DNA of 64,000 bases, taken from contig CAWFQB010000002.1 in the NCBI GenBank assembly GCA_963817895.1, positions 192,001-256,000 of the forward strand, in the 5' to 3' direction. A program made the translations under genes and the position numbers. The stretch's first letter is position 1. Every line of letters starts with the position of its first letter. The notes under the pieces are model-generated. The model was not told the origin of the DNA. It did no database searches and saw only the letters and a list, made by a program, of their open reading frames with translations. Origin of the DNA: an uncultured Chthonomonadaceae bacterium. Lineage in GTDB: Bacteria > Armatimonadota > Chthonomonadetes > Chthonomonadales > Chthonomonadaceae. Positions 9,418 to 53,682 of this stretch are shown here, piece by piece.

Positions 9418-9452
9418 TCCTTGCCCTCTGGGTAAGTTCGCCTCCCATGCGT

Positions 9453-9848: not shown

Positions 9849-10763
9849 CTACGCGGTTCTGGAAATTGCGTTGTTGCCCACGGCTATGAAATCCCATAGG
9901 GCCGACGCAACTCCGATGAGAGGGCGATCACGCCGCCGTGCCAGGTAGAAGTTTCGCGTTTGCCGCAGTCGCTCATCTGGTATAGGGCATAGTAACCCTG
10001 CTTCTTCTTCTAATCTCGTTGCCCAAGAGGACAGAACTGCCAGCCCTAACCCTGCGGCAACCGATCCCTTGATAGCCTCTGTGCTTGGCATTGCAACCAC
10101 ACGCCGAAACGCTGCCAGGAGCGGCCCCAACAATCCCTCTGCGCCTGCGCGGGTGCTTGCTCCCGGTTCGCGTAGAAAAAGCGTTCGTGTCCGCAAATCG
10201 TGTTCCTGAACAAAAGTTTGTTCCAATAGCGAGTTACCCCTAGTCACCACGAGGCGCAATTCATCCGAAGCCACGGGAACACGCAAGATGTCGGCATCCT
10301 CTTGCGCCTCGCCAACGACGGCAAGCGAGATGCGGTAGTCATGCAGCCAAGTGAGAACCTGCGCGCTATCAGCAATCATTATGTCCGGCTCTACGTTCGG
10401 GTAACGGTCACAAAAGCGGCGCAGCACACCGGGAAGCCAATAGACGCCCGGCGTACTGGACGCGGCAATCTTCACCTTACCTTCAATCTTGTCCTGAACA
10501 GAGACAACGGCGACGCGAGCATCTTCCAGCAGGCCAAAGACACGGTTCGCGTACTCGCTCAACATCTGTCCCGCAGGCGTCAGGCGCATTCCGCGGGGAG
10601 TACGCTCAAACAGCATCACCTGGTATCCGGCTTCCAGCGCACGCAACTGTGATGAAACCGCAGGCTGGCTCACGCACAACATTTTTGCGGCCTTCGTAAT
10701 ACTGCCCCACAAAACGATCTGACGAAAGACATGGAGTGGATAGAGATTGAAGGCGTTATCCAT
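9849..10763 (-). CDS. LysR family regulator (CysL-like)
   Basis: SITKAAKMLCVSQPAVSSQLRALE HTH; REPGASTR; STEAIK.SV.AGLG. Confidence 0.92.
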   Translation of the reverse strand: MDNAFNLYPLHVFRQIVLWGSITKAAKMLCVSQPAVSSQLRALEAGYQVMLFERTPRGMRLTPAGQMLSEYANRVFGLLEDARVAVVSVQDKIEGKVKIAASSTPGVYWLPGVLRRFCDRYPNVEPDIMIADSAQVLTWLHDYRISLAVVGEAQEDADILRVPVASDELRLVVTRGNSLLEQTFVQEHDLRTRTLFLREPGASTRAGAEGLLGPLLAAFRRVVAMPSTEAIKGSVAAGLGLAVLSSWATRLEEEAGLLCPIPDERLRQTRNFYLARRRDRPLIGVASALWDFIAVGNNAISRTA

Positions 10764-34580: not shown

Positions 34581-35609
34581 TTAGAAACGCGAAGGCGGCA
34601 TGTCCGTTCTTGGCAGGCGGAAGAACTCGCAATCTACCGCTTCGTTCGTTCCACAGTAGATTTTTCTGAACTTGCAGTACACAGGCGCGGTGACATCTTC
34701 ATTGCGGTTCTGTCCTTCGTAGCGGCACAACAGGCAGTTACGAATCCGTATGCCCTGCTTGTGTGTTTCTTCTACTAATTTCTTGAACACATCGCCGCGG
34801 CCCATCGGATATACCGTTCGCTTGGAATCAATGAGTTTGCGGTAGATCGTTTTCTCTTTTGTCTTGTGGATTTTGTCCTGAATAAACGACAAAGAACCTT
34901 CTTCCAGATAACATCTGCCTGAATCGAACACGAAAAAGCATAAAAACTCTTTCGTCGCGCACAAACAGTCTGCGTCTGTTGCTGCCACTAAGCGCTTGCC
35001 GAGGTTGAGGAAGGCAGCATGTTTTTCATTGATGTAGCGGTCGATGATAGGGGTGATGTCGTCCTCGGTTGCAATCGGTATTTCGATGATGCGATTGGAC
35101 GAGGCTTGCTTCTTCTCGGAAAGGAAGTGCGTCACGGCTATCTCGATATACACCTTCTGGCGCTCGTCTGCGGTGTTGTAGATCAGCAGGTCAGGGATAA
35201 AACTGTCATCTCGCTTTTCCATGCGGATGCCATTGAAACGCGCAGTCAGGTCGTGTTTCTTCGACACGGTTCCGGCGTCACAATCATGGCCCAAGAGGTC
35301 GTAAAACCGTTGACATTGCTTGGAATGCTGACGCCCAATACGAAAGGGAATGTTTTGCTCTAAACACTCCTTGTAGACGTTGTAGAAGGTTGTCTTTGCC
35401 AGTCGGTGCAGATAGGTTTCTGGCGCGCACACCACCCGCTGTTTGTGCGCGAAGTGCTTTTCCTTCTTCTCCCCTTTTGTCTTGGCGATCAAGGGTTCTC
35501 CACAGCCGACGCAGGTGAATGGCCCAAGCGGTTCACTTCTGTCCGCAGGCAGGGTGAGAATATCAACAATCTGCTCTTGTTCGTTGTGGGCGTAGCGAAA
35601 TTGTGGCAT
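34581..35609 (-). CDS. CoiA-like zinc-ribbon plus PD-(D/E)XK nuclease protein
   Basis: CVGC...HFAH...ETYLHRLAK; FIPDLL...YIEIAVTH; C-terminal Cys cluster. Confidence 0.7.
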   Translation of the reverse strand: MPQFRYAHNEQEQIVDILTLPADRSEPLGPFTCVGCGEPLIAKTKGEKKEKHFAHKQRVVCAPETYLHRLAKTTFYNVYKECLEQNIPFRIGRQHSKQCQRFYDLLGHDCDAGTVSKKHDLTARFNGIRMEKRDDSFIPDLLIYNTADERQKVYIEIAVTHFLSEKKQASSNRIIEIPIATEDDITPIIDRYINEKHAAFLNLGKRLVAATDADCLCATKEFLCFFVFDSGRCYLEEGSLSFIQDKIHKTKEKTIYRKLIDSKRTVYPMGRGDVFKKLVEETHKQGIRIRNCLLCRYEGQNRNEDVTAPVYCKFRKIYCGTNEAVDCEFFRLPRTDMPPSRF

Positions 35610-35735
35610 GGCTGTTTTGACGTGAGCATGGTCAGAAATTTTCTGACCATGCTCACCCAGAATAACTATTGCAGAATAGCCGTAATTACATCCCCTGTCC
35701 AATCGAATCCGAATTGGAAGCGAGAGCCATCCAGA

Positions 35736-36911
35736 TTATGCACCTATGGCGAGATTTGCTAGTAACTCAAAAGCAAATGCGCTTGCATGGTCGGCTGCTG
35801 CCTCTTGCGATCCAGAGGCGTCCGAGGCAGATTTGTGATCAATCATATCAGATATGCCACGAATCAAAATGGCGTCCACGTTTTGATTGACATGTGCTGC
35901 CTGAAGAAACCCACGCCCCTCCATTTCTACAGCAACCGCATCTCCATAAGTCGCACGAAGGAAGCGATACGTTTCAGAACGTGTATCCGCGACAACTTGC
36001 TCGCCTGCGGCGATTGGTTTGACATAGGCTTGTGGCGAGTGAGATGAAACAGGGCTATGGATGCGTTTGAGCCATTGTGTCCCGCGCGCTTCGGCACGGG
36101 CATGTTGTTCCATGCGATACGTAGAACGAAACACTTCGGGGCGTGGTTGAAACTCCACGTTGGATTTGCCTGCCTCGTATCCGTATACCTTCGTGGCGGC
36201 GACTACATCTCCGAGTTGGACATCCTTAATACCCCCGCCAACGCCAACAAACATGACTACCTGCGGTGTAAAGAAACTTATGGCTCGCTCAGTCTCAATA
36301 CCAGCACCGGGATTACCTGGGCCGGTTTCGACGACTACAACTTGCCATGATTTGTCGGAAGTTGGAAATGTGCCTTGCTCATAAAGCGTTCCCTGCGGAT
36401 GAGGCACACGCGATAAATTTTCCAGATGCGTGGCAACTGCGCGAAATTCTACAGGCAACGCAGTCAACATCACTGCACAACGTTGCTTTTGAATCAAGAC
36501 TGGTGATGGAGATGAAAGTGTCTGTGGGCCTGTGCTGGACAGGTTATTCACCTGCGAACTGTTAGTGGTTCCTTGTTGAACTGGTGAGTTGCTGACACTG
36601 CCATAAACGTTTATGACATTGCTTGGGTTGGAGTTTGAGGATGAAGTCATGTGTTTACTCGCTGTCATTTCTTGATAAAGTGCGCGCCCGCCCCATTGGA
36701 TAACTGTGGCTCCGCCTATTCCACCAATCGTTTTGACGGCGCTCTTACTACCCAAAAATTGGAGCGCATCAAGAAAGTCTCTCTCCGATATAGGGTTCTC
36801 GGAGACAAGGTAATCGTATAAACTTTGATTGGAAACAGACCTATCACGATCTGGGTTAGCCTCATTCAATGCTGCCAAAACTCGCAACGCATTTTGTTCA
36901 ATCGGGTTCAA
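35736..36911 (-). CDS. PNP_UDP_1 (MTA/SAH nucleosidase-like) effector with N-terminal wHTH-like domain and N/S/Q-rich linker
   Basis: [36 protein letters not shown]. Confidence 0.85.
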
Positions 36912-38503
36912 CTCTCGGCCTTTCCCTCTTGGTTGTCGAACGTTGTGTCTTCCGGCAGCGTCTCCGATCTAATGTTCGTAGTCTGTGTACTACCACTTGT
37001 TGCCAATTGTACTGGTGAGTTCACCATGCTGCCATAGTTGTTTAGGACGTTTTGAGGTGCGGCGGACTGCAAATCCTGTCGGAGCGTGTAGAACTGATGA
37101 CTGCGGCGTGCAGCATCCTCAAAGGTTTGCCCTTCCAGCAACTTGCCGAAGCCGGATTGCCAGTTTCTATCGGTCAAGTACGTGGTACGAACAACAGCCT
37201 TCTTACCCATTCGCTTTGGATACAGTTCAAGCATACTGCGTTGAAATCGCTGTACAAAGCGTTCCAGCAATTCTATCATATTGGCGCTGTTTACATTCAA
37301 ATCAACGACTGTATACGCGCTGTATGCTCCGGCAGGCGAAATGGACATCTCAATAGGCCCTGTCTTCACCATGTACACCGGCCCCTCAAAGCCATATACC
37401 TTACTCAGCCAGCGGTCAGGAAAATTGATGTCTTGGAGTGAGAAAACTTGATCTTTCACGGAGGGTATCACGAGTTCCAACAACTCTGTGTCACCGAAAG
37501 GCAGGAGTTCGCCTGCTTCGGTTTCAAAGAAAAACTCCACAAGTAAAGTCGCCCATTTAGGAGATGGTTGGTTTGATGTCGAGGCAATCTCGACAGGGCG
37601 TAGATTTGTGTCCTCTCCGTTGACGGACAAGCAGAAAGCAGGAAAGTCGGAATATGGTTGGTTGAACAGGGAGTATACTTTCTGTGTGAGCGGCGCTCCC
37701 AAACTGCTCAATTCACTCAAGATAGCACTGTCAAGTTCTGTGAGGCGAGCAGAAAATTCTACGTAGCGATTAGATCGGCAATGCCCACGCGGGTATAGCA
37801 CCGGAATCGGTTTGCATTCCGTTGGAACTTCCACCACTTCTCGAACGCGCGCCGGATCAGTAAGTGTAAGGTTGGCCTCTTTTCCCGTCCGGGGTATCTG
37901 ATCAAATAGTTCCGAGGCTCCCACACTGTATATCCATTGCTCAGGGTTCAAACTGCAATTAGCAAAACCATTGTCCATGCCATACACCCACGGCTGATCA
38001 TCAGGGGATTGCATCTCAATTTCGGGTATGGGAATCTGGATAGAAGGGGGATTGGCTAATTCCAAATTGAAACCCAATGTCGATGTTGGATACACAAAGC
38101 CCAACATCAAATCATCCCGTTCAAAAGGTATACTGCCCGCAGGCAGAAAAGCGGGGGACGGAGTCATACGTACTCCTGGCCTGCCATCCTCGGAAACAGC
38201 ATATTCACTGTCAAACCGATAAGGTGAATACGCTTTCGGCAAATACCAGTAAGCATACGAGGACAGCCATCCCCTTCCCGTAACCTGACTTCCAAGTTCG
38301 AGTTCACCTGCACTCACAGCAACACTCAGCGCAACGACATCTTCAAAACTTTTGGCAGCACGTCCTTGTCTTATGTTGGTTCCAATCCGTAATGATTGAA
38401 CGAGTTCGCGCAAGCCTGTGTAGAATCGCAATAAGTGTTGTATGTACTCATTCGTCAAAGTAGGGCACCCCTGGATTGAACTTCCCTTGTGCATATAGAT
38501 CAT
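36908..38503 (-). CDS. Hypothetical protein with C-terminal amyloid/RHIM-like motif (start uncertain)
   Basis: 531-aa ORF; stop overlaps the PNP gene ATG; tail [23 protein letters not shown]. Confidence 0.7.
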
Positions 38504-39320
38504 CTAGCCGCTTTAGAATGGAAGGCCATTGTCCGAAAAACTTGGGAAGGATTGGTTGTAACGTTAGCGTTGATTCGTGATCAGAGTATTCTATGAGGCG
38601 ATAGTCACTCGTATCGAACCACTTTGCAAAAGCCGCAGCAGAGATATGAAAGCGGCGCTCATCCCCCTCAAAAACAATGCCCATCAAATAAGGGGGTTGC
38701 GACCCATCCGGTGTCGGCCTCATCCATAGCCCGAACTGAAAAGACGACTGCAACGTTTCCGGCAAAGGCTCTCGGCATGGGCCCAGAAATTGTTTGTCCC
38801 ATCGGGAACCATCTGGGTCTACTCCTGAAACAGGAATGATAAGTTCAGCACCGGGAGCAACACTCCCGTCCACCTCAAACATCCAGGGGCGGATTACTTC
38901 ACTTTTTGAAACTCGTGCGCCGGGAAATAAGGATAGGGTTAGGAATGACCGCTCACCTTCGGGCTGCATCAGCACCCACCCCATTGTGCTCAGGTCTCTA
39001 TCATTTGCTAACGAAGAAGCCTCGATAGCCCATTTTTGATTGTCGCCTTCGACAATGATTGCGTACAGGAAAGGAACTGCCATACTGTCAGGAGCAGCGT
39101 ACAGACCCAGCGTGAAACCTTCAAAAGCCGGGGTGGTAAGCGGCAGGCGTTGAGGATTAGTGTACTCTTTATGCCAGGGCATTCCAGCAGCAATGCTGCC
39201 ATTTACACCGATGACGACTTTTGCCCCATCAGGAATGTCTCCGTCGATGGAAATTAGATATGGGCGGTGTACATCACTTCTGCCAATAAAACGTTTTATT
39301 GTTGAACTCCTTTTTATCAA
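38448..39320 (-). CDS. Hypothetical protein with two tandem homologous domains
   Basis: 290-aa ORF overlapping the next gene; internal duplication visible in the translation. Confidence 0.65.
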   Translation of the reverse strand: MIKRSSTIKRFIGRSDVHRPYLISIDGDIPDGAKVVIGVNGSIAAGMPWHKEYTNPQRLPLTTPAFEGFTLGLYAAPDSMAVPFLYAIIVEGDNQKWAIEASSLANDRDLSTMGWVLMQPEGERSFLTLSLFPGARVSKSEVIRPWMFEVDGSVAPGAELIIPVSGVDPDGSRWDKQFLGPCREPLPETLQSSFQFGLWMRPTPDGSQPPYLMGIVFEGDERRFHISAAAFAKWFDTSDYRLIEYSDHESTLTLQPILPKFFGQWPSILKRLDDLYAQGKFNPGVPYFDE

Positions 39321-40943: not shown

Positions 40944-41149
40944 GTTTGCTCGTCTGACATTTGCCTTCTACACAACAGGATTGCCGTTATATTCAGACGC
41001 CGTGCAAAGATATTCCTGCACGGCGTTTGTCGGAATTTATCAGGAGGATTTTGAGTTCCGTTCAGCGAAAAGAATGCGGCGTCTTGAACCATGTTTTCCA
41101 CATTTTTATGCTGTATGGTAGTGGCTTGGACAGGAGTGAGGTACTTGTA

Positions 41150-43585
41150 TTGAGCGATGATAATTTACTACAACCTGAACTGCTCAACGAAGCCGATACT
41201 TGCCGGAAGTACGTCACGCCACGCCTGCAAGCCGCAGGCTGGGAAGCCGAGCCGCACTCGCTCGTGGAGCAGTACACCTTTACCGCGGGCCGCATCCAGA
41301 TTAGGGGCCAGAAGGCGAAGCGCAAGCCCGGCAAGCGTGCCGATTATCTACTTCGCTATACCCGTGATTACCCCATCGCAGTTGTTGAGGCAAAGGCCGA
41401 AGAATTGCCCGCCGCGCAAGGCGTTGAACAGGCGAAAGAGTACGCAGAGGTGCTTGGGCTGTATTTCGCCTATTCTACAAATGGCAAAGAAATCATTGAA
41501 TTCGACTACCTGGCAGGAACGGAACAGGTTGTTGCCGACTATCCCACCCCTGCCCAATTATGGCAGCGGCTTCGGGTAGCACGCAAAGTGACTAAAGACT
41601 CCGAGGCGGTTTTGCTGTCGCCCTCCTACCATCAGGGTGTAGGTGCAACACGCTACTATCAGGACATCGCCATCCAGCGCGTACTGGAAGCCGTCCTTGC
41701 CGGACAACGCCGGGTTCTTCTCACCTGCGCTACGGGTACTGGCAAGAGCAATATCGCCTTTCAGATTGCTTGGAAGTTGTGGAATGCGCGCTGGAACCAG
41801 ACAGGCCGCCAGGGACGCCCGCGTGTTTTGTTTATTGCTGACCGCTCGGTGTTGGTTGACGACCCTATGGACAAAATGTTCGCGCCGCTCGGTACAGCGA
41901 GACACAAGATCGAAGGCAAGGCAGAGACCGGGCGCGACATCTACTTCGCCACCTATCAATCTCTTGCCGGAGACGAGCGGCGAGACGGGTTGTATCGTGA
42001 GTTCGATCCCAACTTCTTTGACCTGGTGATTGTGGATGAAGCGCATCGAGGCAGCGCACGCGAGGATTCCAACTGGCGCGACATCCTCAACCATTTTGCA
42101 CCGGCCTATCAGTTGGGTATGACCGCCAGCCCCATACGCGATTCAAATCGCGACACCTACCAGTATTTCGGCAACCCCGTTTATACATATAGTCTCAAGC
42201 AAGGAATAGATGACGGCTTCCTCGCACCGTACCGCGTTTACCGCATCCAAACTGTCTGGGATGAGATTGGCTACCGCCCCGGCAAGGGAGCCGTAGATCG
42301 ACATGGGCAGGCTATCCCCGACGAAATCTTCAAGACCAAAGACTTCGAGCGCGTCATTGTGTTGCAGGCGCGCACGGAGGCCATTGCTCGTCACCTCTCC
42401 GACTTTCTCAAGTCCACAGATCGGTTCGCCAAAACCATCGTGTTTTGCGCGAACCAGGAACACGCGCTCGCCATGCGGCAGGCGCTTATCAATGAGAACC
42501 GCGACCTGGTAAAAACCTACCCCAACTACGTTTGTCGGGTGACGGCTGACGAGGGCGACATCGGACGGGCTCATCTGTCACGCTTTCAAGAAGTGGACAC
42601 CAAAACGCCCACAATCCTGACAACGAGCCAACTGCTCACTACGGGCGTAGATGCCCCCACTTGCAAGAATGTCGTTCTCGTGCGCCCGATTGACAGCATG
42701 GTGGAATTCAAACAGATAATCGGCAGGGGAACACGGGTTCGGGAAGACTACGGCAAACTGTTCTTCAACATTCTTGATTACGCAGGTTCCGCGAGCGAAC
42801 GCTTCGCCGACCCACAATTCGATGGCGATCCGGCCCTGCTCACTGAAATAGAATTGGACGAACACGGGCAGGCCACTGAGGAGAACATCCGCGCCGCTGA
42901 GGAGAAAGAAGCCTCTGATCCCGAAGACGAAGATGCCAATGTAGGTGAGGAGGATGCCGATGAAGGTTATACTGGCGGCTACAAAGGCGGCGGGCGACGC
43001 AAGAAGTATTATGTAGACGGCGGCATCGTTCAGATTGCCAGCGAGATTGTACAGGAATTAGACGCGGATGGTAATGTCCTGCGAGTCATGCGTCTGACCG
43101 ACTACACGGCAGACAAGATGCGGATGCTGTGCGCCACGCCCGAAGAAATGCAGCAGTCATGGAGCGACCCGGTACAGCGGGGCGAGATCGTGAACGCGCT
43201 GGAAGAACGCGGCATAGATTTTGAGGAACTGGCGCGCGTAGTGGGCAAGCCGGACGCCGATCCCTTCGACGTACTCTGCCATCTCGCCTACCAAGCGCCC
43301 CTGCTCACCCGCCGTGAGCGCGCCGACCGATTGAAGCGCAGTAAGCCCGACTTCTTTGACGCCTACGGCCCTACCGCCCGTGCCATTTTGGAAGAACTAC
43401 TGGACAAGTACGCAGAGCATGGCGTGGAGCAGTTTCAAATTCCCGATGCGCTGAAAGTGCCGCCGATTTCCAACCACGGCAACATTTCGGAGATCATAAA
43501 GGCGTTTGGCGGCGCGGAGGTGTTGAGAAGCGCGGTGATGGGATTGCAAGCCATGCTGTACGAACAGGCGGGAACCGCCAGATGA
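41150..43585 (+). CDS. hsdR: Type I restriction subunit R (EcoAI/EcoEI-like)
   Basis: ADY...VVEAK nuclease motif; ATGTGKS, DEAHRG, QIIGRGTR; TTG 41150 follows GGAGTGAGG. Confidence 0.93.
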   Translation: MSDDNLLQPELLNEADTCRKYVTPRLQAAGWEAEPHSLVEQYTFTAGRIQIRGQKAKRKPGKRADYLLRYTRDYPIAVVEAKAEELPAAQGVEQAKEYAEVLGLYFAYSTNGKEIIEFDYLAGTEQVVADYPTPAQLWQRLRVARKVTKDSEAVLLSPSYHQGVGATRYYQDIAIQRVLEAVLAGQRRVLLTCATGTGKSNIAFQIAWKLWNARWNQTGRQGRPRVLFIADRSVLVDDPMDKMFAPLGTARHKIEGKAETGRDIYFATYQSLAGDERRDGLYREFDPNFFDLVIVDEAHRGSAREDSNWRDILNHFAPAYQLGMTASPIRDSNRDTYQYFGNPVYTYSLKQGIDDGFLAPYRVYRIQTVWDEIGYRPGKGAVDRHGQAIPDEIFKTKDFERVIVLQARTEAIARHLSDFLKSTDRFAKTIVFCANQEHALAMRQALINENRDLVKTYPNYVCRVTADEGDIGRAHLSRFQEVDTKTPTILTTSQLLTTGVDAPTCKNVVLVRPIDSMVEFKQIIGRGTRVREDYGKLFFNILDYAGSASERFADPQFDGDPALLTEIELDEHGQATEENIRAAEEKEASDPEDEDANVGEEDADEGYTGGYKGGGRRKKYYVDGGIVQIASEIVQELDADGNVLRVMRLTDYTADKMRMLCATPEEMQQSWSDPVQRGEIVNALEERGIDFEELARVVGKPDADPFDVLCHLAYQAPLLTRRERADRLKRSKPDFFDAYGPTARAILEELLDKYAEHGVEQFQIPDALKVPPISNHGNISEIIKAFGGAEVLRSAVMGLQAMLYEQAGTAR

Positions 43586-44154
43586 AAATCAACTTTGGTG
43601 TCTTCGGCAAGAAAGACGAATTCGCCATCGAGATTCCTGAGCCTTTTGCGGCGGCACCTGACGAACCAGAACATACAAGTGCCACTGGCATCATAGCGGA
43701 TGTCGAGGAAACCCACAGTCTTGCAAAGGCATTCCGTCAGGCAATTCAGAAGTGTGACCAAGATTTGCTGCCCATAAACTTTGAACGTTTTCCAAATGGA
43801 GCCTGCGGCGTGACCTCGCGCCTGCTGCAAAAGTACCTGCGTGAGCGTGATCAGGGCGAGTTTAATTACATCTATGGAATACGGACGTGGAAATCCCAGA
43901 GTTGGCGCTCTCACGCCTGGTTGGAACAGAACGGCTTGATTGTGGACATCACTGCGGATCAATTTTATGATATGCGACGGGCTGTGTTGGTTACAACGGA
44001 TCGCGCATGGCATACTAAGTTTCGTAAACGACGAATTTCTCGTGGCACAACATGGGAAAGGGGCAGTTGTTCGGCAGACGAAAATCTGCTTACCACCTAT
44101 CCGCACATTGCCACCCTCGCGGATGAAATTCGAGAAAAAAGTAGGAAGGATTGA
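43582..44154 (+). CDS. Hypothetical protein with papain/transglutaminase-like Cys-His-Asp pattern
   Basis: FPNGACG...SHAWLE...IVDITADQF; 4-nt overlaps with hsdR and hsdM. Confidence 0.7.
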   Translation: MKINFGVFGKKDEFAIEIPEPFAAAPDEPEHTSATGIIADVEETHSLAKAFRQAIQKCDQDLLPINFERFPNGACGVTSRLLQKYLRERDQGEFNYIYGIRTWKSQSWRSHAWLEQNGLIVDITADQFYDMRRAVLVTTDRAWHTKFRKRRISRGTTWERGSCSADENLLTTYPHIATLADEIREKSRKD

Positions 44155-46040
44155 CAGAGCACATGCCTTCGAGAAAAAAGGAGCAAATGGAACTGGCAGG
44201 GATGCCCGCAAAGCCCATACGTGCTAAACGCGAGGAAAAACAGGTGACCACGGCGCAGCGTCTTGGCAGTCTCGTCAAGTCCGCGCGCGACCTCATGCGT
44301 AAAGATAAGGGACTTTCCGGGGACGCTGACCGGCTGCCGCAACTCACCTGGATTATGTTCCTCAAGTTCCTAGACGATTTGGAACGAACGCGCGAGGAGG
44401 CGGCTCCGCTATCCGGGGAGGTGTTCCGCCCTATTCTGGAAACTCCCTACCGCTGGCGCGATTGGGCGGATCGTGAGAGTGGGCCAACCGGCGACGACCT
44501 TTTGGATTTCATCGGCGGGCAGGAAGTTGTAATTGGCAAGGATGCGACTGGGGCGGACATCAAAAAGCCGGGGCTGTTTCGGTATTTGCGCGGCTTTCAA
44601 GGCAGTGATAATCCGCAACGCGCCGTCATCGGCAACATCTTCCGAAATGTCCAGAACCGCATGAACGACGGGTATCTCCTTCGCAGTGTTTTGAACCTTG
44701 TAGATGGGATTCATTTCGACAGCAGCGAGGAAATTCATACCCTGGGCCGGTTGTACGAGTCCATGCTCAAGGAGATGCGTGATGCAAGTGGCGACGCCGG
44801 GGAGTTTTATACGCCGCGCCCGGTCGTAAGGTTCATGGTCGAGGTGATGAACCCTCGCTTGGGCGAAACTGTGTACGATCCTGCCTGCGGCACAGGCGGC
44901 TTCCTGAGTGAGGCGTTCCTCCACCTCAAGCAGCAGTGCCGCAGGGCAGAGGATAACTCTACATTGCAGGCGCGCAGCATCCTGGGCGGTGAGGCCAAAC
45001 CGCTGCCGTATCTGCTGTGTGAAATGAATTTGCTGTTGCACGGGTTGGACGCGCCGGACGTGCGCTTCGACAATAGCCTCAAGGTACGGCTGGGCGAAAT
45101 TGGTGAACAAGAGCGCGTGAGCGTGGTACTTACCAACCCACCTTTCGGCGGTGAGGAGGAGGCGAGTGTGCAGAACGGCTTTCCAGCCGACAAGCGCACA
45201 TCGGAGACAGCCCTGTTGTTTCTGCAACTCATTATGAGGAAATTGCATCGTAGTCCTGAGCCGGGGCGAGCAGGCGTGGTTGTGCCCAACGGCATCTTGT
45301 TTGCGGACGGCGTTGCGGCGCGCATCAAGGAGGAACTGCTCACGGAGTTCCGCCTGCATACCATTGTGCGACTGCCCGTTGGTGTCTTCGCGCCGTACAC
45401 CAGCATCCCCACGAACCTGCTGTTTTTCGAGGCGGGCGCACCCACAACAGAAATCTGGTATTACGAGCAGCCTTTGCCCGAAGGCCGCAAATCCTACTCT
45501 AAGACGCAGCCCATGCAGTACGAGGAGTTTGCCCCGCTCTTAGCCTGGTGGGATGTGCGCGAGGAGAATGAGCGCGCCTGGCGTGTGGATTGGACACAGA
45601 CCTATGAGACGGCGCGCACGGCGGCACAACCGCACTGGGACGCCGCGCAGGAAGCGGAAGCCAAAGCCCGCGAGTATGGCGCGACAGCGAAGGAGGCGGG
45701 TGAGCAGATGCAATCGGCGCAACGTCTTCTGCAATCCGGGATGCTGCCGCAGGAGGAGCGCGCTCGCATACAGGCTGAAATCGAGAACCAGCGTGCCCGA
45801 CGCGATCAGGCCCAAGAAATCGAACGCAGCCTTCGGGAGCGCGTCCGCGAGGAGCAGACAAAAGGCGATGCCCTGTATTGGCCCATCTACAACCTGGATC
45901 GCAAAAATCCGAGTCGTGCTGAGGACTTTGAACATTTGCCGCCTGAACAACTGATTGGCGATATTCTGAATAAAGAACTGCAAATTATCTCTTTGATGCA
46001 AGAGATCGAGCGAGCGCTTTTGGTAGGGGTAACAGCATGA
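44151..46040 (+). CDS. hsdM: Type I methyltransferase subunit M with coiled-coil insert
   Basis: GEFYTPR, DPACGTGGF, TNPPFGG. Confidence 0.95.
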   Translation: MTEHMPSRKKEQMELAGMPAKPIRAKREEKQVTTAQRLGSLVKSARDLMRKDKGLSGDADRLPQLTWIMFLKFLDDLERTREEAAPLSGEVFRPILETPYRWRDWADRESGPTGDDLLDFIGGQEVVIGKDATGADIKKPGLFRYLRGFQGSDNPQRAVIGNIFRNVQNRMNDGYLLRSVLNLVDGIHFDSSEEIHTLGRLYESMLKEMRDASGDAGEFYTPRPVVRFMVEVMNPRLGETVYDPACGTGGFLSEAFLHLKQQCRRAEDNSTLQARSILGGEAKPLPYLLCEMNLLLHGLDAPDVRFDNSLKVRLGEIGEQERVSVVLTNPPFGGEEEASVQNGFPADKRTSETALLFLQLIMRKLHRSPEPGRAGVVVPNGILFADGVAARIKEELLTEFRLHTIVRLPVGVFAPYTSIPTNLLFFEAGAPTTEIWYYEQPLPEGRKSYSKTQPMQYEEFAPLLAWWDVREENERAWRVDWTQTYETARTAAQPHWDAAQEAEAKAREYGATAKEAGEQMQSAQRLLQSGMLPQEERARIQAEIENQRARRDQAQEIERSLRERVREEQTKGDALYWPIYNLDRKNPSRAEDFEHLPPEQLIGDILNKELQIISLMQEIERALLVGVTA

Positions 46041-47189
46041 GCATAGGGTGGCCTCTCGTTCCATTGGCAAAAGTCGCTCGTCCTATCTCTCGCGTAGTGT
46101 CCGTTACATCTGGGGAAACCTATCGCACGATTGGGGTAAGGTGGTGGGGAGAGGGAGCGTATGAACGGCAAACCATAGACGGCTCCCAGACTGCCGCAAA
46201 AACCCTGAACATCGTCCGCGAAAACGATTTGATCATTAACAAAATATGGGTGCGACATGGTTCGACCGCAATTGCGTCTGCTGCGGTGGATGGATGTGCG
46301 GCTTCCGGCGAGTTTCCGATGTTTGAACTTGATCCAAGTCGTGTTATGCCACGTTGGATACACTGGTTGACCAAAATGCGTCCCTTCTGGGATAGTTGTG
46401 ACCGACTTTCTCAAGGAACAAGCGGCAAGAACCGCATACGTCCAGAGTTATTTCTCACAATCTTAGTTCCACTTCCGCCCCTACACGAACAGCAGCGCAT
46501 CGTGGCGCACATTGAGGAGTTGGTGGGCAAGATTACGCAAGCGGGGGAACTGAGACGTGAAAGCCGGAGAGATATGAGGGCTGCTCTACTGGCTTCCTAC
46601 TCGGCGATCATTAAAGACGCCTGCCGATTCACCATGTCAACTGTCGCTCCGCTGGTGCGCCGTCCCATCAATGTTATCGAAGAAACACTTTACCCGGAAC
46701 TTGGAATTCGGTCGTTTGGTAAAGGTACTTTCCATAAATCTCCAGTAAGGGGGAGTGAAATCGGCTCCAAACGGCTGTTTGGTATCGAACCTGGCGATCT
46801 GTTGTTCAACATTGTTTTCGCATGGGAGGGCGCAGTAGCCATTGCAAAACCAGAAGATGTTGGGCGCGTAGGTTCCCATCGCTTTCTGACTCGTGTTGTA
46901 AATCCCGATTTGGCGTTAGCCTCTTATCTCTGTTTCCACTTTTTGACCGAAAGAGGACTGGAACAACTACCAGCAAGCATCTCCCGGTGGCGCAGGAAGA
47001 AATCGCACTCTCGGCCTCAAAACATTGGAGAAAATTGAAGTACCGATTCCAACTCTTGACGCACAACGAACATTCGATAGATTGTTGGCGCGCAGTGACG
47101 CAATTGAAGCGTTGCAAAAAGAGGCCGATGTAAAAATAGAAGCCCTTGTACCTTCGTTGCTCGACCTGGCGTTCAGGGGCGAACTTTGA
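46037..47189 (+). pseudogene. hsdS: Type I specificity subunit S; +1 frameshift near 46970
   Basis: VPLPPLHEQQRIV; the shifted frame gives SPGGAGRNRTL...IEVPIP...LLDLAFRGEL-stop. Confidence 0.85.
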
Positions 47190-47352: not shown

Positions 47353-47874
47353 ATGAAAAAGAATTCAGCAGGCGGGTCGCCCCAGTCGGCCTCGGTCGTC
47401 AGTCTGGAAGATTTGGGGAAACTGATCCGCGAAAAGCGTAAGGCTGCGGATTTGACATTGGAACAGGCCGCGCAACAAGCAGGTGTCAGCGCGGCAACTC
47501 TTTCTCGATGGGAACGACAGGGAAGATTGCAAGAAGGCGTTGATGGTACAGCACGAACGATGCGCACCCCCGACATGCAGACCCTTGCCGCTATTACCCG
47601 CTGGCTCGGAGTGTCCATAGATAGGGTTAGCACTTTCGAGACACCACCGCCCGCGCACAGTGTGGTGCATCACGCAGGCGAAGCCACGCCTGACATTGTA
47701 GAAGCCCATCTAAGAGCAGATCGCAACCTTGACCCGGACACAGCCGGGGCGCTGTCGCGGATGTTTCGGGTCGCCTATGAGCAGTTTGCCAAGTTGCAGG
47801 CTGCTGCGCCGTCCGAAGATCGTCCAGAAAGGAAACCGGATAATGAGCCGGATGACGCCACCAAAACACAATGA
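47353..47874 (+). CDS. XRE family HTH regulator
   Basis: LTLEQAAQQAGVSAATLSRWER; C-terminal VEAHLRADRNL. Confidence 0.88.
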   Translation: MKKNSAGGSPQSASVVSLEDLGKLIREKRKAADLTLEQAAQQAGVSAATLSRWERQGRLQEGVDGTARTMRTPDMQTLAAITRWLGVSIDRVSTFETPPPAHSVVHHAGEATPDIVEAHLRADRNLDPDTAGALSRMFRVAYEQFAKLQAAAPSEDRPERKPDNEPDDATKTQ

Positions 47875-48499
47875 GGACAAGGAAAGTAGCAATCGCGCGC
47901 CGCGTATAGTGACGACTGGATTGCGCGAGTTTCTGCGACGGATCGAGGAGAACGGACTGGCTCTGCGGCAGAAGGCAGGTATTGGGCCGGAAGAACGACT
48001 GTATCCGCGCAGACTGGCGACAGAGTTCAAGTTGCACTTCATGGAACTCAACGATATGGAAGCGCTTGCGCCCGCAGACCGGGCACACATCGAAAGCAGT
48101 GATGCCAGGAAGTGGTCGGGCAGCGGTCTTCCGCTTCCCAATGACGAGTGGTTGATTATCTTGCACCCCTGCCAAACACCGGAGCGCGCCACCGTGACCA
48201 CGATGGAAGAAATAGCGCATGTTCACTATAGACACAAACCTTGTCGCCTGGTAACAGATGCAGCCGGGGTGACGCATCGGGAGTACGACCCGGAAATTGA
48301 GGACGAAGCCTACTGGACAGCATCCGCAGCCCTATTGCCTTCTAAAGCCCTGGCGCGGCGCGTGTATAAAGGCGTGACCACGCAAGCCATTGCCGCGGAG
48401 TTCGGCGTCAGCACACAACTGGTAGAGTTCCGCATTAAGACACTGGGGTTGTGGAGTGACCACAAAGCGCGCCATCGGGAGGAGGCAGTCACCGCATGA
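47843..48499 (+). CDS. ImmA/IrrE-family metallopeptidase (EExxH variant)
   Basis: R...T.MEEIAH, EDEAYWTASAALLP, IAAEFGVS..LV.FR. Confidence 0.8.
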   Translation: MSRMTPPKHNEDKESSNRAPRIVTTGLREFLRRIEENGLALRQKAGIGPEERLYPRRLATEFKLHFMELNDMEALAPADRAHIESSDARKWSGSGLPLPNDEWLIILHPCQTPERATVTTMEEIAHVHYRHKPCRLVTDAAGVTHREYDPEIEDEAYWTASAALLPSKALARRVYKGVTTQAIAAEFGVSTQLVEFRIKTLGLWSDHKARHREEAVTA

Positions 48500-49479
48500 A
48501 AGTGTCTATTGAGGAGTTCAGTGCCTTATTATCCACGCCCTTGAGGGAACTTGGGGCGAAGCAGGTCGCTCGTTCCTCCTACCATGCGGATCAAAATGGT
48601 TACCGGATGGCAACATCTCCATCCAGTACAGATGGATTATTGCAAACTCGGCTGCGAATGTCGTTTTCGGCGGCGGAGCGGGAAGCGGTGAGATTGGTGG
48701 CACAGAACCGCCCGCTCCCGTTGCGGGAGTTCGACCAAATACCAATGTACAACCGCGATCTGCTCCGTCAGGCCAAATTGATCGCACCCTATCTGGCGGG
48801 TAAGACAGTCGCCTTTGTGGGAGACATTGATAGCACTAGCCTGATGCTGGGGATGCTAACCCTCTGTAGCAACCCGTCGCCTGCGCGTATGGTACTGCTC
48901 GACTTCGATGCCCGCCTGCTCACGGCGGCAAGGAAAATGGCGTCTCGCTATGGGTTTTCACGTCTGCTGGAAACCCGGATGCACAATTTCTTTGATCCTG
49001 TGCCCGCTGACCTGATTGGTACCTGTGATTGGTTTTATACCAACCCACCTTTCGGCTCGAACAATCAAGGGGCGAGCGCACAATTGTTTATAGCACGCGG
49101 ACAGGAACTCTGCAAAGAGGAAGGGGCAAGCGGCTGTATTATCATGCCATACGACACGAACAGAGCGTGGACTACGCAGACATGGCTGGCAACGCAACGG
49201 TTCCTTGTAAATGGCGGATGGGGTGTACGCGAAAAAGTGGATGGTATGCACCGTTACCATTTGGATGATGACCCGGAACTGACCTCCTCCATGATCTTGG
49301 TAGATGCAATCATGGGAGGATTACTGGACGCTGCATCTTACGCAGGGCGGCGCGTTCCTTTTGATGAAATCCCTTTGTTCTATGGGCGTAGTGTGCAGCC
49401 GCCGTATCCGCGCTACATTCGAGAGGACGGCAGTTTCGACATGGATTGGAGCGTCGAGGAAGGCGGTTACAGCATATAG
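48496..49479 (+). CDS. BpsA/DUF43-like SAM-fold transferase
   Basis: RP.PLREFDQ, VAFVGDIDSTSL, DFDARL, FYTNPPFG. Confidence 0.7.
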   Translation: MKVSIEEFSALLSTPLRELGAKQVARSSYHADQNGYRMATSPSSTDGLLQTRLRMSFSAAEREAVRLVAQNRPLPLREFDQIPMYNRDLLRQAKLIAPYLAGKTVAFVGDIDSTSLMLGMLTLCSNPSPARMVLLDFDARLLTAARKMASRYGFSRLLETRMHNFFDPVPADLIGTCDWFYTNPPFGSNNQGASAQLFIARGQELCKEEGASGCIIMPYDTNRAWTTQTWLATQRFLVNGGWGVREKVDGMHRYHLDDDPELTSSMILVDAIMGGLLDAASYAGRRVPFDEIPLFYGRSVQPPYPRYIREDGSFDMDWSVEEGGYSI

Positions 49480-50131: not shown

Positions 50132-52471
50132 ATGCCACAGACCACAAATCAGACCAACAACACCAGCCTACTTCTGAATATCGCTCCGGTAGAGTTTCAG
50201 GATAGGGAGATCGCAGTGGGCGTATTCGCCTATGCTGACAATCAACAATTGCGCACCCTACGAAGCGAATACCGAGAGACACACCTTTTCCGACGTGAAC
50301 GCAACAATGAGCAAGACGAGATTTTGTGTGTTCCCCTCATTTCAGACGTTGAACCACTGGGTGACAAGACACGAACCATTCGGCTTTACAATCATCTTCA
50401 CCTTTGTGCGGCGCTCGTTCGCGAGGCCATGCTTGAATTTCTCTATAAGCATGGCATCCAGAGTTTTGGGTATGATCCAATCGAGTACGTGGTCAACGCA
50501 GTCGGTGATGATCTCCTGCGCGCCTCGCTACCTTCTGGCGTGGTGGCACCCTCATGGATTTCCGTTAAGGTACTCAACGCATTGACAATCCGCCCGATGC
50601 ACATGGAACGCCAAGCGCCGTTTGTGGGTGTCGCGCTTGACTTTCACGCACAGCACCTTGTGAATGTTCCCTGCGATCAGTTGATTGCAATGGGGTTGAA
50701 CATCAAGGGATTATACGTCAGTCAGGCATTGCCCGAATCAGACCCGCGTGTGTTTCCGCGTGAGCGACTGTTGGGGCGCGTTCAGTCTGTGCAGAATGGA
50801 AAATTGTCGCTTTCAGATGTGCGCCATGACGATGGCCCGGACTGTGTAGAGGCCAGTGCCGTATACCTTGAACCACGTCACGACGCCTTCGATGTATGTC
50901 TGAACCATGCGTTCAAGCAGCGTGTCAGGCAAGTAAGAGACAACCTACACCGCAACCTGCACCAAATTCAAAGTGGCCCAGATAAGTTGGATCGGCTTCG
51001 CAAACGCATGGAAACGCTAACTAACCGCAAGACACCATTGGAAATGCTGCCTGGCATTCCGTTCTCGTTCCAGCCATTTCTCGCGGAGGGGACAAGCAAA
51101 ACGTTTCCGCTCGTGAACCACGCCAAGCGCCCCGTCTACGTGTTCGATCCTACTGGTACGCGCACGGCAGAGTATAATGACCCCGGCATCACCCAATACG
51201 GCCCATACAGTGCCTACGGCAACCTGTTCACGCCGAACCTACCCAACATGGTCGTGATCTGCCAGAAGAACAAAAAGGGACTCGTCGAACAGTTTCTCGC
51301 CAAGTTCAAGACAGGCATCGCCGGGTCGCGTTTTGAGACCGGATTTGTGGGTAAATACCGGTTGGCAGATGTCAACTTCGAGTTTTTCCTTACGGAGACG
51401 GAGAGTGCGGAAGACTATGAGGAAGCGGCAAACCGCGCCATTCACGCCTACGCCAAAGCCGACAAGCGCATCCACTTAGGCTTTGTGCAAATAGAAGACC
51501 GGTATCGTGAATTGCGTGGAGGGACAAATCCCTATTTGGTAACAAAGGCTGCTTTTTTGTCACACCAAATCCCTGTTCAGGAGTTCACCATCCAGAAGGC
51601 GACACAGGAAGACAAATATCTCTCGCATATTCTGAACACGATAGGGCTGGCGGTATATGCCAAACTTGGCGGAACGCCCTGGCTCATGCCATCCAACCGT
51701 GTGATCGCTCACGAACTGGTTTTCGGATTGGGCAGCGCGCAGGTGAATGAAGGACGGTTTGGAGAGCGACGCAGATATGTGGGCATCACCACGGTGTTCA
51801 GTGGAGATGGCAATTACCGTCTCGCCAATCTGTCGCAGGCAGTGCCTCTAAGGAGGTATGAGGAAGCGTTGCTCGACTCCCTGCGGGAAACCGTAACTAA
51901 AGTGCGCGCCGACAATAACTGGCAACCCGGCGACACTGTACGCCTGATATTCCACGCATTCAAACCCATGAAATATGCTGAGATCGACGCCGTAACTGCG
52001 TTGATGGATGAACTTGGCGACTACGAAGTAGAATTCGCCTTTCTACACATTGCCGAGGAACACCCGTACCTCCTGTTCGACCCGGCGCAGAAGGGTGTGT
52101 ATTCCTACGAAATCCGGGCCAATAAAGGCGTATATGCCCCTATGCGCGGCATATACTTCCGCCTTTCCGAACACGAAACTCTGATGTCGCTTGTCGGCGC
52201 GCGTGAAGTTAAAAGACCAGAAGATGGTCTGCCACGTCCAGTGCTTTTGAAACTACATCCACGCTCCACGTTCGCGGATCATATCTATCTCGCCCGCCAA
52301 GTTTTTATGTTTTCCTGTCACTCATGGCGAAATTTTACGCCTGGCGCACACCCAGTTACGATTCATTATTCATCGCTGATAGCACGTATGCTCGGCGAAT
52401 TGGAAACAGTGCCGACGTGGAATCCAAACGTTATGTATGGAAGGATTGGCGAAACAAGGTGGTTCCTATAA
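50132..52471 (+). CDS. ago: Long-B prokaryotic Argonaute, catalytically inactive (RsAgo-like)
   Basis: MID motifs NPYLVTK, IPVQ, YAKLGG; PIWI ELVFGLG, LIFHAFK, PVTIHYS lack DEDX; ends RWFL. Confidence 0.93.
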   Translation: MPQTTNQTNNTSLLLNIAPVEFQDREIAVGVFAYADNQQLRTLRSEYRETHLFRRERNNEQDEILCVPLISDVEPLGDKTRTIRLYNHLHLCAALVREAMLEFLYKHGIQSFGYDPIEYVVNAVGDDLLRASLPSGVVAPSWISVKVLNALTIRPMHMERQAPFVGVALDFHAQHLVNVPCDQLIAMGLNIKGLYVSQALPESDPRVFPRERLLGRVQSVQNGKLSLSDVRHDDGPDCVEASAVYLEPRHDAFDVCLNHAFKQRVRQVRDNLHRNLHQIQSGPDKLDRLRKRMETLTNRKTPLEMLPGIPFSFQPFLAEGTSKTFPLVNHAKRPVYVFDPTGTRTAEYNDPGITQYGPYSAYGNLFTPNLPNMVVICQKNKKGLVEQFLAKFKTGIAGSRFETGFVGKYRLADVNFEFFLTETESAEDYEEAANRAIHAYAKADKRIHLGFVQIEDRYRELRGGTNPYLVTKAAFLSHQIPVQEFTIQKATQEDKYLSHILNTIGLAVYAKLGGTPWLMPSNRVIAHELVFGLGSAQVNEGRFGERRRYVGITTVFSGDGNYRLANLSQAVPLRRYEEALLDSLRETVTKVRADNNWQPGDTVRLIFHAFKPMKYAEIDAVTALMDELGDYEVEFAFLHIAEEHPYLLFDPAQKGVYSYEIRANKGVYAPMRGIYFRLSEHETLMSLVGAREVKRPEDGLPRPVLLKLHPRSTFADHIYLARQVFMFSCHSWRNFTPGAHPVTIHYSSLIARMLGELETVPTWNPNVMYGRIGETRWFL

Positions 52472-53682
52472 GCAAAACAAGCAGTATTCTTTTCAGCGAT
52501 GTACGGGCAACACTGGCACGGGTGGCACAACAAGCCGAAGGCCGCAATGATGCCGTAGAAGCCGCTTGCGCATGGTTGCTCCCCGGTCTGGATACAGTCT
52601 CAAGACTGGCAACAATGGCAGAACACGCGGCTACCTGTAAAGGGCAGATGCGCTCCTACAAACAGGTTGCCGTCTTAGGGTATGCGGCAAGTCTGTTGCT
52701 GGACAAGTTCCAACAGCAGGCTGCACTCGAAAATGGTCTGAAATGGCTTTCTGGCTTGCCTGCTATGAGTGCGGGCGCACTTATGGGCTTCGCCACTGAT
52801 CCCGTCTCGTTGCTTGGTATCGCACTCGGAACAAGATGCGCTTGTGATGAAGTAAAGTCTGCCGTACGGAATTGGGCTGCTAAATTTCTTTCTGACGAGT
52901 ATAACGCTCTGGGTACGGAACCGTGGCACAGTTGCTTGCTGGCGGTCACAGCACAGATTTTAACAATAGAACCTGTGTTACCCATTCCCATTGAGACGGA
53001 AGCAGCGTGTGTGCGGGTCGCCATGCGATCAAAAGGATTATTGCCTGCAAACTCCTCGAATGAAGCGGACGAGGAGTTTGTCTTAACACTTCTGAAAGAA
53101 AGCCGTGCTACAGAAACGGATTGCACCCATGCTGCCATTCAGATGGTCGCACTCGACTGGATTAGGCGCAAAGCGCCAACCGTTATACCAGCGCGCATGA
53201 CGCCTGAAGATGTCGTCAGTCTGTTGAAACATACGGAGTTCGCCCTCAAGCGTTGGACTTGGGAGGACAAGCCCAAAACCACAACAGGAATCGCTCGACA
53301 GTGGCACATAGACAATGAGTACCATTTGCAAAATCTGCTGTGGACACTCCTCGCCCCCATATTTCCTGACCTCACAGACGAGGAATATACCATTCAACTC
53401 GGCTCTAAAAATCCTCGCATTGATCTTGGCATTCCTTCCCTCAAATTGATCATTGAAGCAAAATTCATGCGCATGGGCGACCCGCCGAAAAAGTTTATTG
53501 AGGAGATTGCGGCAGACGCCAGCCTTTATTTGGTGGAAGGGGCGCGGTACAACCAGATTGTCGCTATTATTTGGGATGACACAGCACGCACAAACCTGCA
53601 CACAGAGATGATACGCGCTATGAACCAGATTGATGGTGTGCTGGATGCCGTAGTTGTGTCCCGCCCAGGAAACTGGACATGA
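52459..53682 (+). CDS. Argonaute-associated PD-(D/E)XK nuclease (DpnII/MboI-like C-terminal domain)
   Basis: NEYHLQNLL...EE...RIDL...IIEAK; probable GTG start overlapping the end of ago. Confidence 0.8.
   Translation: MVPISKTSSILFSDVRATLARVAQQAEGRNDAVEAACAWLLPGLDTVSRLATMAEHAATCKGQMRSYKQVAVLGYAASLLLDKFQQQAALENGLKWLSGLPAMSAGALMGFATDPVSLLGIALGTRCACDEVKSAVRNWAAKFLSDEYNALGTEPWHSCLLAVTAQILTIEPVLPIPIETEAACVRVAMRSKGLLPANSSNEADEEFVLTLLKESRATETDCTHAAIQMVALDWIRRKAPTVIPARMTPEDVVSLLKHTEFALKRWTWEDKPKTTTGIARQWHIDNEYHLQNLLWTLLAPIFPDLTDEEYTIQLGSKNPRIDLGIPSLKLIIEAKFMRMGDPPKKFIEEIAADASLYLVEGARYNQIVAIIWDDTARTNLHTEMIRAMNQIDGVLDAVVVSRPGNWT

Follow-up and report, generated by a model that had tools for sequence, protein, structure and literature searches.

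Amyloid signalling pairs in fungi and bacteria are defined by adjacent genes that carry the same short motif, together with relatives in which the two partners are fused (10.1101/2020.01.06.895854); the same report gives the precedent of prion behaviour for the bacterial BASS pairs. A sensor that is not a nucleotide-binding, NOD-like receptor (NLR) has its precedent in Bab/Agp, where assembly through the shared motif is triggered by phage and depends on the sensor (10.1101/2024.11.07.622273). The fungal PUASM motif, which is linked to PNP_UDP domains, forms both fibrils and prions (PMC9815663), and PNP domains of immune systems cleave ATP or dATP in CBASS, Avs, pAgo and Detocs (10.1101/2023.01.24.525353). 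In bacterial immunity, very few cases of amyloid signalling are on record, namely NLR/Bell pairs inferred from genomes, whose prions were shown in fungi, and one tested system of Escherichia coli. Here we describe three genes, A, B and C, from a soil Armatimonadota bacterium. They lie in a stretch of 64,000 nucleotides (positions 192,001 to 256,000 of contig CAWFQB010000002.1, assembly GCA_963817895.1, an uncultured Chthonomonadaceae bacterium), which is referred to as the window and to which all coordinates apply unless a locus is named. The reading we prefer, and to which we give about an even chance, is that A-B-C is a phage-defence module acting by abortive infection, in which a beta-prone motif shared by B and C relays the signal from sensor to effector in the manner of BASS and RHIM amyloids.

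The three genes are co-oriented open reading frames (ORFs) on the minus strand (Table 1). In the closest genome, a metagenome-assembled genome of Chthonomonadaceae from the same genus, the same A-B-C block is found at the same site (L001), with a B protein that is 87% identical. The TTG start of this B orthologue corresponds to window position 38458, which gives the 516-residue form of B used below. With this start, A and B overlap by 11 nt, while B and C overlap by 4 nt (TTGA) in the window and in L001 alike, and A-B-C is translationally coupled. These ORFs and overlaps agree with the three overlapping, co-oriented genes of a preliminary description of this DNA, which was made from its sequence.

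Although B and C are otherwise dissimilar, they share the motif. A BLASTP comparison of the two proteins gave one significant segment, which is the motif (15/28 identical, E 1e-5), and the next segments had E ~1 or worse, so that the earlier statement that B and C have no other similarity stands. The Smith-Waterman score of B against C was 92, a value reached by none of 2000 whole-protein shuffles of C. When the low-complexity tails alone were compared, so as to control for composition, the observed score was 89, reached by none of 5000 tail shuffles. The match is also visible in the DNA, as had been noted, with 50 of 78 bases identical, including the reverse complements of AACTCACCAGT and TATGGCAG, the two words quoted at the time. 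A loose regular expression of eight residues, run in six frames over the whole 7.48-Mb genome, returned four matches, and the full motif was present only in the adjacent B and C. Both copies were found within a few bases of the positions first estimated for them (Table 1). The copy in B had been said to end the protein; its location holds, but 21 residues follow it.

The composition of the motif is like that of known signalling amyloids, as had been proposed: the four B and C copies have no charged residue and 16-18 N, Q, S, T or G among 26 (17/26 in the B copy of the window). The motif has in this respect the properties of an uncharged, G/N/Q/S/T-rich and non-folded segment of ~20-35 residues, the evidence for disorder coming from the B copy. 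In the AlphaFold2 (AF2) model of B, residues 469-516, which include the motif, have a predicted local distance difference test score (pLDDT) below 50, with means of 25-33 for blocks of 10 residues from residue 471 onwards, and the motif in B is accordingly predicted to sit in a disordered C-terminal tail. Among the relatives of B, the motif is kept at 20/26 positions in P0001 and at 16/26 in P0003. The latter protein is 62% identical to B overall, and seven unrelated residues take the place of the tail behind the motif; with 16 positions kept and the tail lost, the motif of B is under constraint. B and C agree with each other at 15/26 motif positions in the window and 13/26 in L001, compared to 5-11 of 24-25 positions when set against eight other members of the motif family described below. 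A RHIM/BASS3-like core has the form [IV]-Q-[IV]-G. At the level of comparison by eye, C has V-Q-Q-G and B has V-Q-L-A. Also by eye, the core resembles BASS3 examples in the succession of G-x-x-x-x-[GS]-P, [LIV]-Q-x-G, a spacer and Q-x-N (PMC8086366 supplement 1), with a spacer one residue longer and a stretch before the core two residues shorter than in those examples.

B was described earlier as a partner without a P-loop or TPR/WD repeats and hence not an NLR, and this is borne out. No model in four family libraries (Pfam, PADLOC, NCBIfam and PHROGs) matched B, the ESM Atlas gave no usable match, and a Pfam scan together with a Walker A search found neither P-loop nor repeats in it; a Walker A was likewise not found in A or in the downstream gene D. 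B is without an NB-ARC or NACHT domain with repeats, and its motif is at the C-terminus, not the N-terminus. Relatives of B are few: a search of 5.8 billion proteins gave six, and HMMER, run exhaustively over 1.84 billion proteins, returned 15 representatives, of which eight had E<=1e-30. The family was found in 2 of 401 Armatimonadota genomes, both from one genus, whose third genome (G389, 91% complete) gave no match. Contig searches for further B loci gave one genome locus, one metagenome locus and no viral locus. The AF2 model was built from 14 sequences and has good confidence over residues 1-468 (mean pLDDT 77.5, predicted TM-score 0.79). With this model, Foldseek found no match at E<=1e-3 in PDB or BFVD. 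The best Z of an exhaustive VIA search was 7.8, which is noise level by the tool's own rating, and no fold is claimed from its background-level matches (OB-like for residues 30-290, ferredoxin-like for residues 302-430). Because the fold searches gave no clear relative, the globular part of B is best regarded as a new sensor or scaffold domain with no assigned fold, and B appears from its sequence to represent a new sensor or scaffold family.

The C-terminal modules were tallied over those B relatives that have a readable C-terminus (Table 1). Effector domains (CHAT, PNP_UDP_1 and others) are fused exactly where B has its motif, so that the B domain occurs in one chain with PNP_UDP_1 in P0007 and with CHAT in five relatives. 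Comparison of the P0007 fusion with the split genes of the window indicates that the same sensor occurs either fused to a PNP domain or apart from it. In the split form, both partners appear to have gained the same short motif, and this is the criterion that defines amyloid signalling pairs. The sensor-effector fusions provide the classical argument that contact between the motifs has probably replaced a covalent link. In a separate observation, the C-terminal ~170 residues of P0004 and P0009 show by eye a D...(Q/N)xK pattern reminiscent of nucleases with the restriction-endonuclease fold.

The PNP_UDP domain reported earlier for C is confirmed by Pfam (Table 1). In an alignment to solved methylthioadenosine/S-adenosylhomocysteine (MTA/SAH) nucleosidases (best PDB E 1.2e-8), C keeps the VEME and ISD segments, which we take to be catalytic, and the PNP_UDP_1 domain appears to be intact in these segments. 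Against NCBIfam, C matched MTAN (3.7e-20) and futalosine hydrolase (5.2e-15), with all scores far below the equivalog cut-offs (72 vs 169 bits for MTAN). Against PADLOC, the matches were PDC-M60C (1.3e-19) and the CBASS-type 'Effector PN-superfamily' (3.1e-17). A check of novelty with PADLOC had been suggested, and its outcome is divided: A and B match nothing in PADLOC-DB v2, while C matches these two effector models, and only one component of a PDC-M60 system is therefore recognised. A winged helix-turn-helix-like (wHTH-like) N-terminus of C, also proposed earlier, was not confirmed by any library. Residues 1-90 had no Pfam match, and the only hints are NCBIfam DicC at E 0.053 and a weak alignment of the domain plus motif to a protein of another Armatimonadota locus with the order wHTH-like domain, motif, AbiTi-like domain (L007, E 0.002). 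A search for relatives of residues 1-145 found only C itself and its L001 orthologue. In addition, the PADLOC AbiTi model matches the motif in C with its positions 2-30 (of 114; E 1.2e-3). In its predicted make-up C resembles a self-contained sensor-motif-effector protein, a resemblance that the preliminary description missed.

Gene A, which was also missed, is co-conserved with B. Its homologues stand directly upstream of those of B in L001 (72% identity) and in a metagenome contig, L002 (37% identity), where the B homologue is fused to CHAT. The presence of A beside a CHAT-fused B implies that A travels with B whether the effector is split off or not. No match to A was found in Pfam, PADLOC, NCBIfam or PHROGs, and no usable one in the ESM Atlas. 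An AF2 model from three sequences has low confidence (pLDDT 48) and shows two beta-sandwich-like halves; A is accordingly predicted to have two internal beta-rich repeats, the model being too weak for a fold search. Directly upstream of the A-homologue and B-CHAT genes in L002 there is also an IetA/IetS defence pair (AAA ATPase and subtilase; L002:108-3542).

The motif is not confined to B and C. A profile was built from ten motif copies, in which a Q, an S and a second Q are invariant and which have 0-2 charges each. Among 8000 scored candidates, 77 proteins matched this profile at E<=10, and 62 of them carry PF18864 (AbiTii); the other 15 are B and C proteins, wHTH-like forms and fragments. 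In the 401 Armatimonadota genomes the profile gave 11 strong matches (E<=6e-10), located in four genomes, and all other matches had E>=0.0175. Three of these four genomes had supplied sequences for the profile, while the fourth (G331) is independent. Each strong match lies within ~3.3 kb of another, in twos or threes; a motif hidden Markov model had been suggested earlier as a test for paired occurrence in adjacent genes. In L001, a third motif gene stands beside C (L001:8853-10913), encoding the motif between a wHTH-like domain and an AbiTi-like helical domain (AbiTi match 4.4e-8, PDC-M14B 1.6e-8). An insertion sequence (transposase-like ORF 9246-10577) interrupts this gene within its motif, and the window genome lacks the gene. 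Tandem gene triplets occur in two other Armatimonadota genomes (L007:105-752, 973-1836 and 1855-2496 in G121; G331:C16:17143-18958), and in each gene the motif stands between an N-terminal domain (wHTH-like in two) and an AbiTi-like domain; such a triplet may be a set of cross-seeding sensors or a plain tandem duplication.

In single plasmid-borne proteins of Aeromonas, Pseudomonas, Klebsiella, Vibrio, Brevibacillus and Paraburkholderia, the motif lies between AbiTii (PF18864) and an AbiTi-like domain (Table 1), and the AbiTi-like helical domain of these fusions has a hydrophobic C-terminal helix. A search of PLSDB with the Brevibacillus protein matched 142 records, 66 of them covering >=80% of the protein. 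The motif therefore belongs to a family common to AbiTii/AbiTi-type proteins, a wider family that the preliminary description did not recognise, and is a portable module joining AbiTii or wHTH-like domains to AbiTi-like effectors. Since it lies inside the plasmid AbiTii-AbiTi fusions, the classic AbiT family of abortive-infection proteins may use an amyloid-type switch. The lactococcal AbiTi/AbiTii proteins themselves were not among the plasmid matches examined; the Lactococcus lactis match is an AbiTii fusion with a different linker. Two other AbiTii-domain proteins, from a Klebsiella plasmid (L011:2495-3379) and a Lactococcus plasmid (L010:2480-3379), have other N/G- or N/S-rich stretches at the same position and other C-terminal domains. 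Comparison of these sequences suggests that several motif families exist within the AbiTii architecture.

In the mechanism we propose, the globular domain of B, or A, or both, would detect an infection cue, upon which B would oligomerise. The clustered tails of B would fold into a cross-beta nucleus, and this nucleus would recruit and template the matching motif in C. C would then polymerise, bringing its PNP domains together. PNP-family enzymes are oligomers with inter-subunit active sites. The active nucleosidase would cleave ATP, dATP or a related nucleotide, as Cap17 and DtcC do, so that phage replication is stopped and the cell is lost. The N-terminal domain of C could act as a second input or as an autoinhibitor; in its relatives, a single chain unites a wHTH-like domain with the motif and an effector. 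The earlier proposal that the upstream protein templates amyloid assembly of the nucleosidase is supported by the pairing of the motifs, the non-NLR partner and the effector-fused homologues, while amyloid formation, templating, ATP degradation and abortive infection at A-B-C are steps that we infer by analogy with the systems introduced above, which among them give a separate precedent for each step.

Several observations weigh against an amyloid relay between B and C. In both motif copies a proline immediately precedes the V/I-Q core, and BASS3 forms no foci once a Q within it is changed to P (PMC9815663); BASS3 examples do, however, carry a proline three residues upstream of the core (PMC8086366 supplement 1). 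The topology is reversed with respect to every described pair, the motif being C-terminal in the sensor B but internal and N-terminal to the enzyme in C. Effectors of BASS and FASS pairs have the motif at the C-terminus, whereas that of C lies well inside the chain, and PUASM placed N-terminal to green fluorescent protein formed no foci (PMC9815663). In most of the family the motif occurs in cis; its role may therefore lie within a single chain and need not involve signalling between proteins. Between the two orthologous B-C pairs compared, those of the window and L001 from one genus, a single motif position, the first, shows a change common to B and C (N to S). Finally, C scores about as well against housekeeping MTAN models as against immune-PNP models. 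A complex prediction with B residues 466-531 and C residues 1-145 scored 0.00 in a run without controls and speaks neither for nor against binding.

The strongest competing explanation, which we regard as rather improbable, is that the motif couples B and C as a docking or strand-exchange peptide and not as an amyloid template. The motif of C would then be autoinhibitory, held on its own N-terminal or PNP domain, and the tail of B would displace it or add a strand to it, giving a finite hetero-oligomer. Docking explains the pairing, the Rosetta-stone fusions and the clustering of motif genes equally well. A conserved proline adjoins the core, and the motif is internal both in C and in the AbiTii-AbiTi fusions; these features suit an amyloid core no better than they suit a linker or a folded beta-hairpin. 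C, too, always keeps its N-terminal domain beside the motif. However, a segment without charges, with 60-70% N/Q/S/T/G and with low pLDDT in the B tail, is what signalling amyloids typically show, whereas docking peptides seldom look like this. Moreover, the motif is common to unrelated flanking domains (the B domain, AbiTii, wHTH-like, PNP and AbiTi-like), so that no common docking surface is apparent.

The likeness of the motifs could also be a leftover of module shuffling, with B and C independent of each other and C using its motif only for self-assembly. C would in that case be self-contained like its cousins of the wHTH-like-motif-AbiTi-like type, and B would have lost its effector or would work with A alone. 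The architecture of the wider family agrees with this, most members holding the sensor-like domain, motif and effector in one chain, as in the 62 of 77 profile matches with PF18864 and in the L007 triplet. So does the third motif gene of L001, a complete one-chain protein beside C that is now cut by an insertion sequence, and covariation of the B and C motifs is not demonstrated by the two pairs from one genus. We nevertheless consider this explanation unlikely, for four reasons. Three lineages, down to 62% identity, retain a B that has no effector but a conserved terminal motif; the motif of B is closer to that of C than to that of any other family member; the 4-nt overlap of B and C is found in both genomes; and all other full-length relatives of B keep an effector, which implies that an effector-less sensor needs a partner. 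That there is no defence system at all, A and B being unrelated neighbours of a C that serves in nucleoside salvage or as a nucleosidase of the futalosine type and has a regulatory N-terminus, would fit the alignment of C to MTA/SAH nucleosidases and its MTAN and futalosine hydrolase matches, but is highly improbable given NCBIfam scores so far below the equivalog cut-offs, the matches of C to PADLOC defence-effector models, the location in a defence island, the fusion of B relatives to CHAT or PNP, the rarity of B in the phylum and the translational coupling of the genes.

If the preferred amyloid relay is correct, A-B-C would add to the few bacterial cases a sensor family without a known domain, an enzymatic, nucleotide-depleting effector and a reversed motif topology, and it would tie the motif to AbiT, a family known for long but still without a mechanistic explanation. 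A broader proposal, which we put forward tentatively and with clearly less confidence, is that the motif of 26 residues is an amyloid-type switch, widespread but so far unrecognised and possibly an offshoot of RHIM/BASS3, that serves as a universal plug between unrelated sensors (A/B, AbiTii, wHTH-like) and effectors (PNP, AbiTi-like). Lactococcal AbiT and more than 100 plasmid AbiTii-AbiTi fusions of Aeromonas, Pseudomonas, Klebsiella and Vibrio would then be amyloid-controlled abortive-infection devices. B and C would be the first bacterial pair in which a separate non-NLR sensor activates an enzyme, in place of a pore-former, by cross-seeding, and this with reversed motif topology. A-B-C is directly testable, as the operon is ~3.6 kb and the motif 26 residues long, and the toolkit developed for Bab/Agp (beta-breaker mutants, motif-GFP reporters and motif swaps) applies unchanged.

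The window is a defence island, in which a type I restriction-modification system, a Piwi-domain protein and an M78 peptidase adjoin A-B-C (Table 1). Of the earlier claim of a defence system, a candidate module within such an island stands, whereas defence activity itself is something we infer. The Piwi-domain protein and the DpnII-MboI nuclease (50132-53682) look like an argonaute-plus-nuclease defence pair. In G389, an empty-site comparison did not find the genes flanking A-B-C with the queries used either, so that there is no clean indel boundary. CoiA_N zinc-ribbon proteins are encoded downstream of the B homologue at all three loci, by gene D in the window and at L001:11138-12244 and L002:8190-9332. 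D and the L002 protein have only the zinc ribbon in common (E 5e-4), and in L002 a PIN-type gene intervenes between the B homologue and the CoiA_N gene. D was considered as a fourth component and rejected for now on the ground that nothing beyond the zinc ribbon is common to D and its L002 counterpart.

Table 1. Features of the A-B-C locus and its surroundings in the window, and proteins related to B or carrying the motif elsewhere.
Feature	Position or protein	Strand	Details
Gene A	38448-39320	minus	290 aa; with an internal GTG start as in L001, perhaps ~273 aa
Gene B	36908-38458	minus	516 aa from TTG 38458; 531 aa (36908-38503) from ATG 38503
Globular domain of B	37055-38458	minus	residues 1-468 of the 516-aa form
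Motif copy in B	36974-37051	minus	26 aa, residues 470-495 of 516
Gene C	35736-36911	minus	391 aa; small N-terminal domain, motif, PNP_UDP nucleosidase domain
N-terminal domain of C	36642-36911	minus	~residues 1-90, wHTH-like by pattern only
Motif copy in C	36543-36620	minus	26 aa, residues 98-123
PNP_UDP_1 domain of C	35760-36470	minus	residues 148-384, Pfam PF01048 E 1.8e-26
Gene D	34581-35702	minus	373 aa, CoiA_N zinc-ribbon protein (Pfam CoiA_N 1.6e-7); membership doubtful
HsdR, type I restriction-modification	40961-43585		defence island neighbour
HsdM, type I restriction-modification	44151-46040		defence island neighbour
333-aa ORF without family assignment	46037-47038		occupies the place of HsdS after HsdM
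M78 (IrrE-type) peptidase	47729-48499		defence island neighbour
BpsA_C-like protein	48496-49479		after the M78 peptidase
Piwi-domain protein, 779 aa	50132-52471		Pfam Piwi E 1.3e-6
DpnII-MboI restriction-endonuclease-domain protein, 452 aa	52324-53682		E 1.4e-43; overlaps the Piwi gene
CHAT C-terminus of B relative	P0005, P0006		precomputed PF12770
CHAT C-terminus of B relative	P0011		PF12770 5.9e-9
CHAT C-terminus of B relative	L002 protein		PADLOC 'chat'
CHAT C-terminus of B relative	P0010		inferred from near-identity to P0005
PNP_UDP_1 C-terminus of B relative	P0007		residues 489-767, E 8.9e-15; 27% identical to the PNP domain of C, E 8e-12
C-terminal ~170-aa modules without assignment	P0004, P0009		no Pfam hit at E<=0.05
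Motif-only C-terminus	window B, P0001/L001, P0003		
AbiTii-motif-AbiTi-like fusions	L003:3419-4324, L004:3557-4315, L005:3671-4306; also P0026-P0098		the three L loci are translated examples from plasmids

Compared with described systems, A-B-C shares individual features with several. With AbiT (AbiTi/AbiTii) and PDC-M14B it has in common the motif family, which is found there N-terminal to AbiTi-like helical domains. B and C are without an AbiTii or AbiTi-like domain, however, and most AbiT-type relatives are one fused protein; PF18864 was not found in A, B or C, and the AbiTi model touches only the motif of C, a full AbiTi-like domain being present only in the third motif gene of L001. Like Cap17 of CBASS and DtcC of Detocs, C is a PNP_UDP_1 effector in a defence context, but these effectors are activated by cyclic-oligonucleotide binding or phosphotransfer (10.1101/2023.01.24.525353), whereas C has no such input domain and the shared motif is proposed in its place. 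In fungal PUASM, as is proposed for A-B-C, a PNP_UDP effector is under the control of a short amyloid motif that it has in common with a sensor encoded by a neighbouring gene; there, the partner is a NACHT NLR, and the PNP protein carries its motif C-terminally, with the pattern FxGxGxQxxGxGxF (PMC9815663). The BASS1-10 NLR/Bell pairs (10.1101/2020.01.06.895854) likewise have a G/N/Q/S/T-rich motif in adjacent genes and all-in-one fusions. Unlike their sensors, B is without NB-ARC/NACHT and TPR/WD repeats, the termini that carry the motif are reversed, and the host is an armatimonadote where the BASS hosts are an actinobacterium or a cyanobacterium. A literature search, outside which most subscription journals and the bioRxiv supplements lay, gave no description of the B family, of a bacterial PNP effector with an amyloid motif or of a link between AbiT and amyloids. 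The earlier claim of a new defence system was overstated in two respects: amyloid phage defence with a non-NLR sensor and fungal amyloid motifs on PNP_UDP proteins had already been published, as Bab/Agp and PUASM respectively.

The closest system in logic is Bab/Agp (BASS11) of E. coli ECOR25 (10.1101/2024.11.07.622273), and B and C resemble a BASS pair. There are, to be sure, differences. The sensor here is a new 470-aa domain with a C-terminal motif and is accompanied by the co-conserved gene A, and the motif family of B and C appears to differ from BASS11. The Bab/Agp effector is a small pore-forming domain of the Bell type with a C-terminal motif; C is instead a PNP_UDP enzyme, preceded in the chain by an extra domain and then the motif. 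Bab/Agp was shown by experiment, whereas A-B-C is known here from sequence alone. In common, both are adjacent pairs in a defence island, with a non-NLR sensor and with only a short amyloid-type motif shared between the partners, and the logic proposed for both is the same: activation of the sensor, assembly through the motif, activation of the effector and abortive infection.

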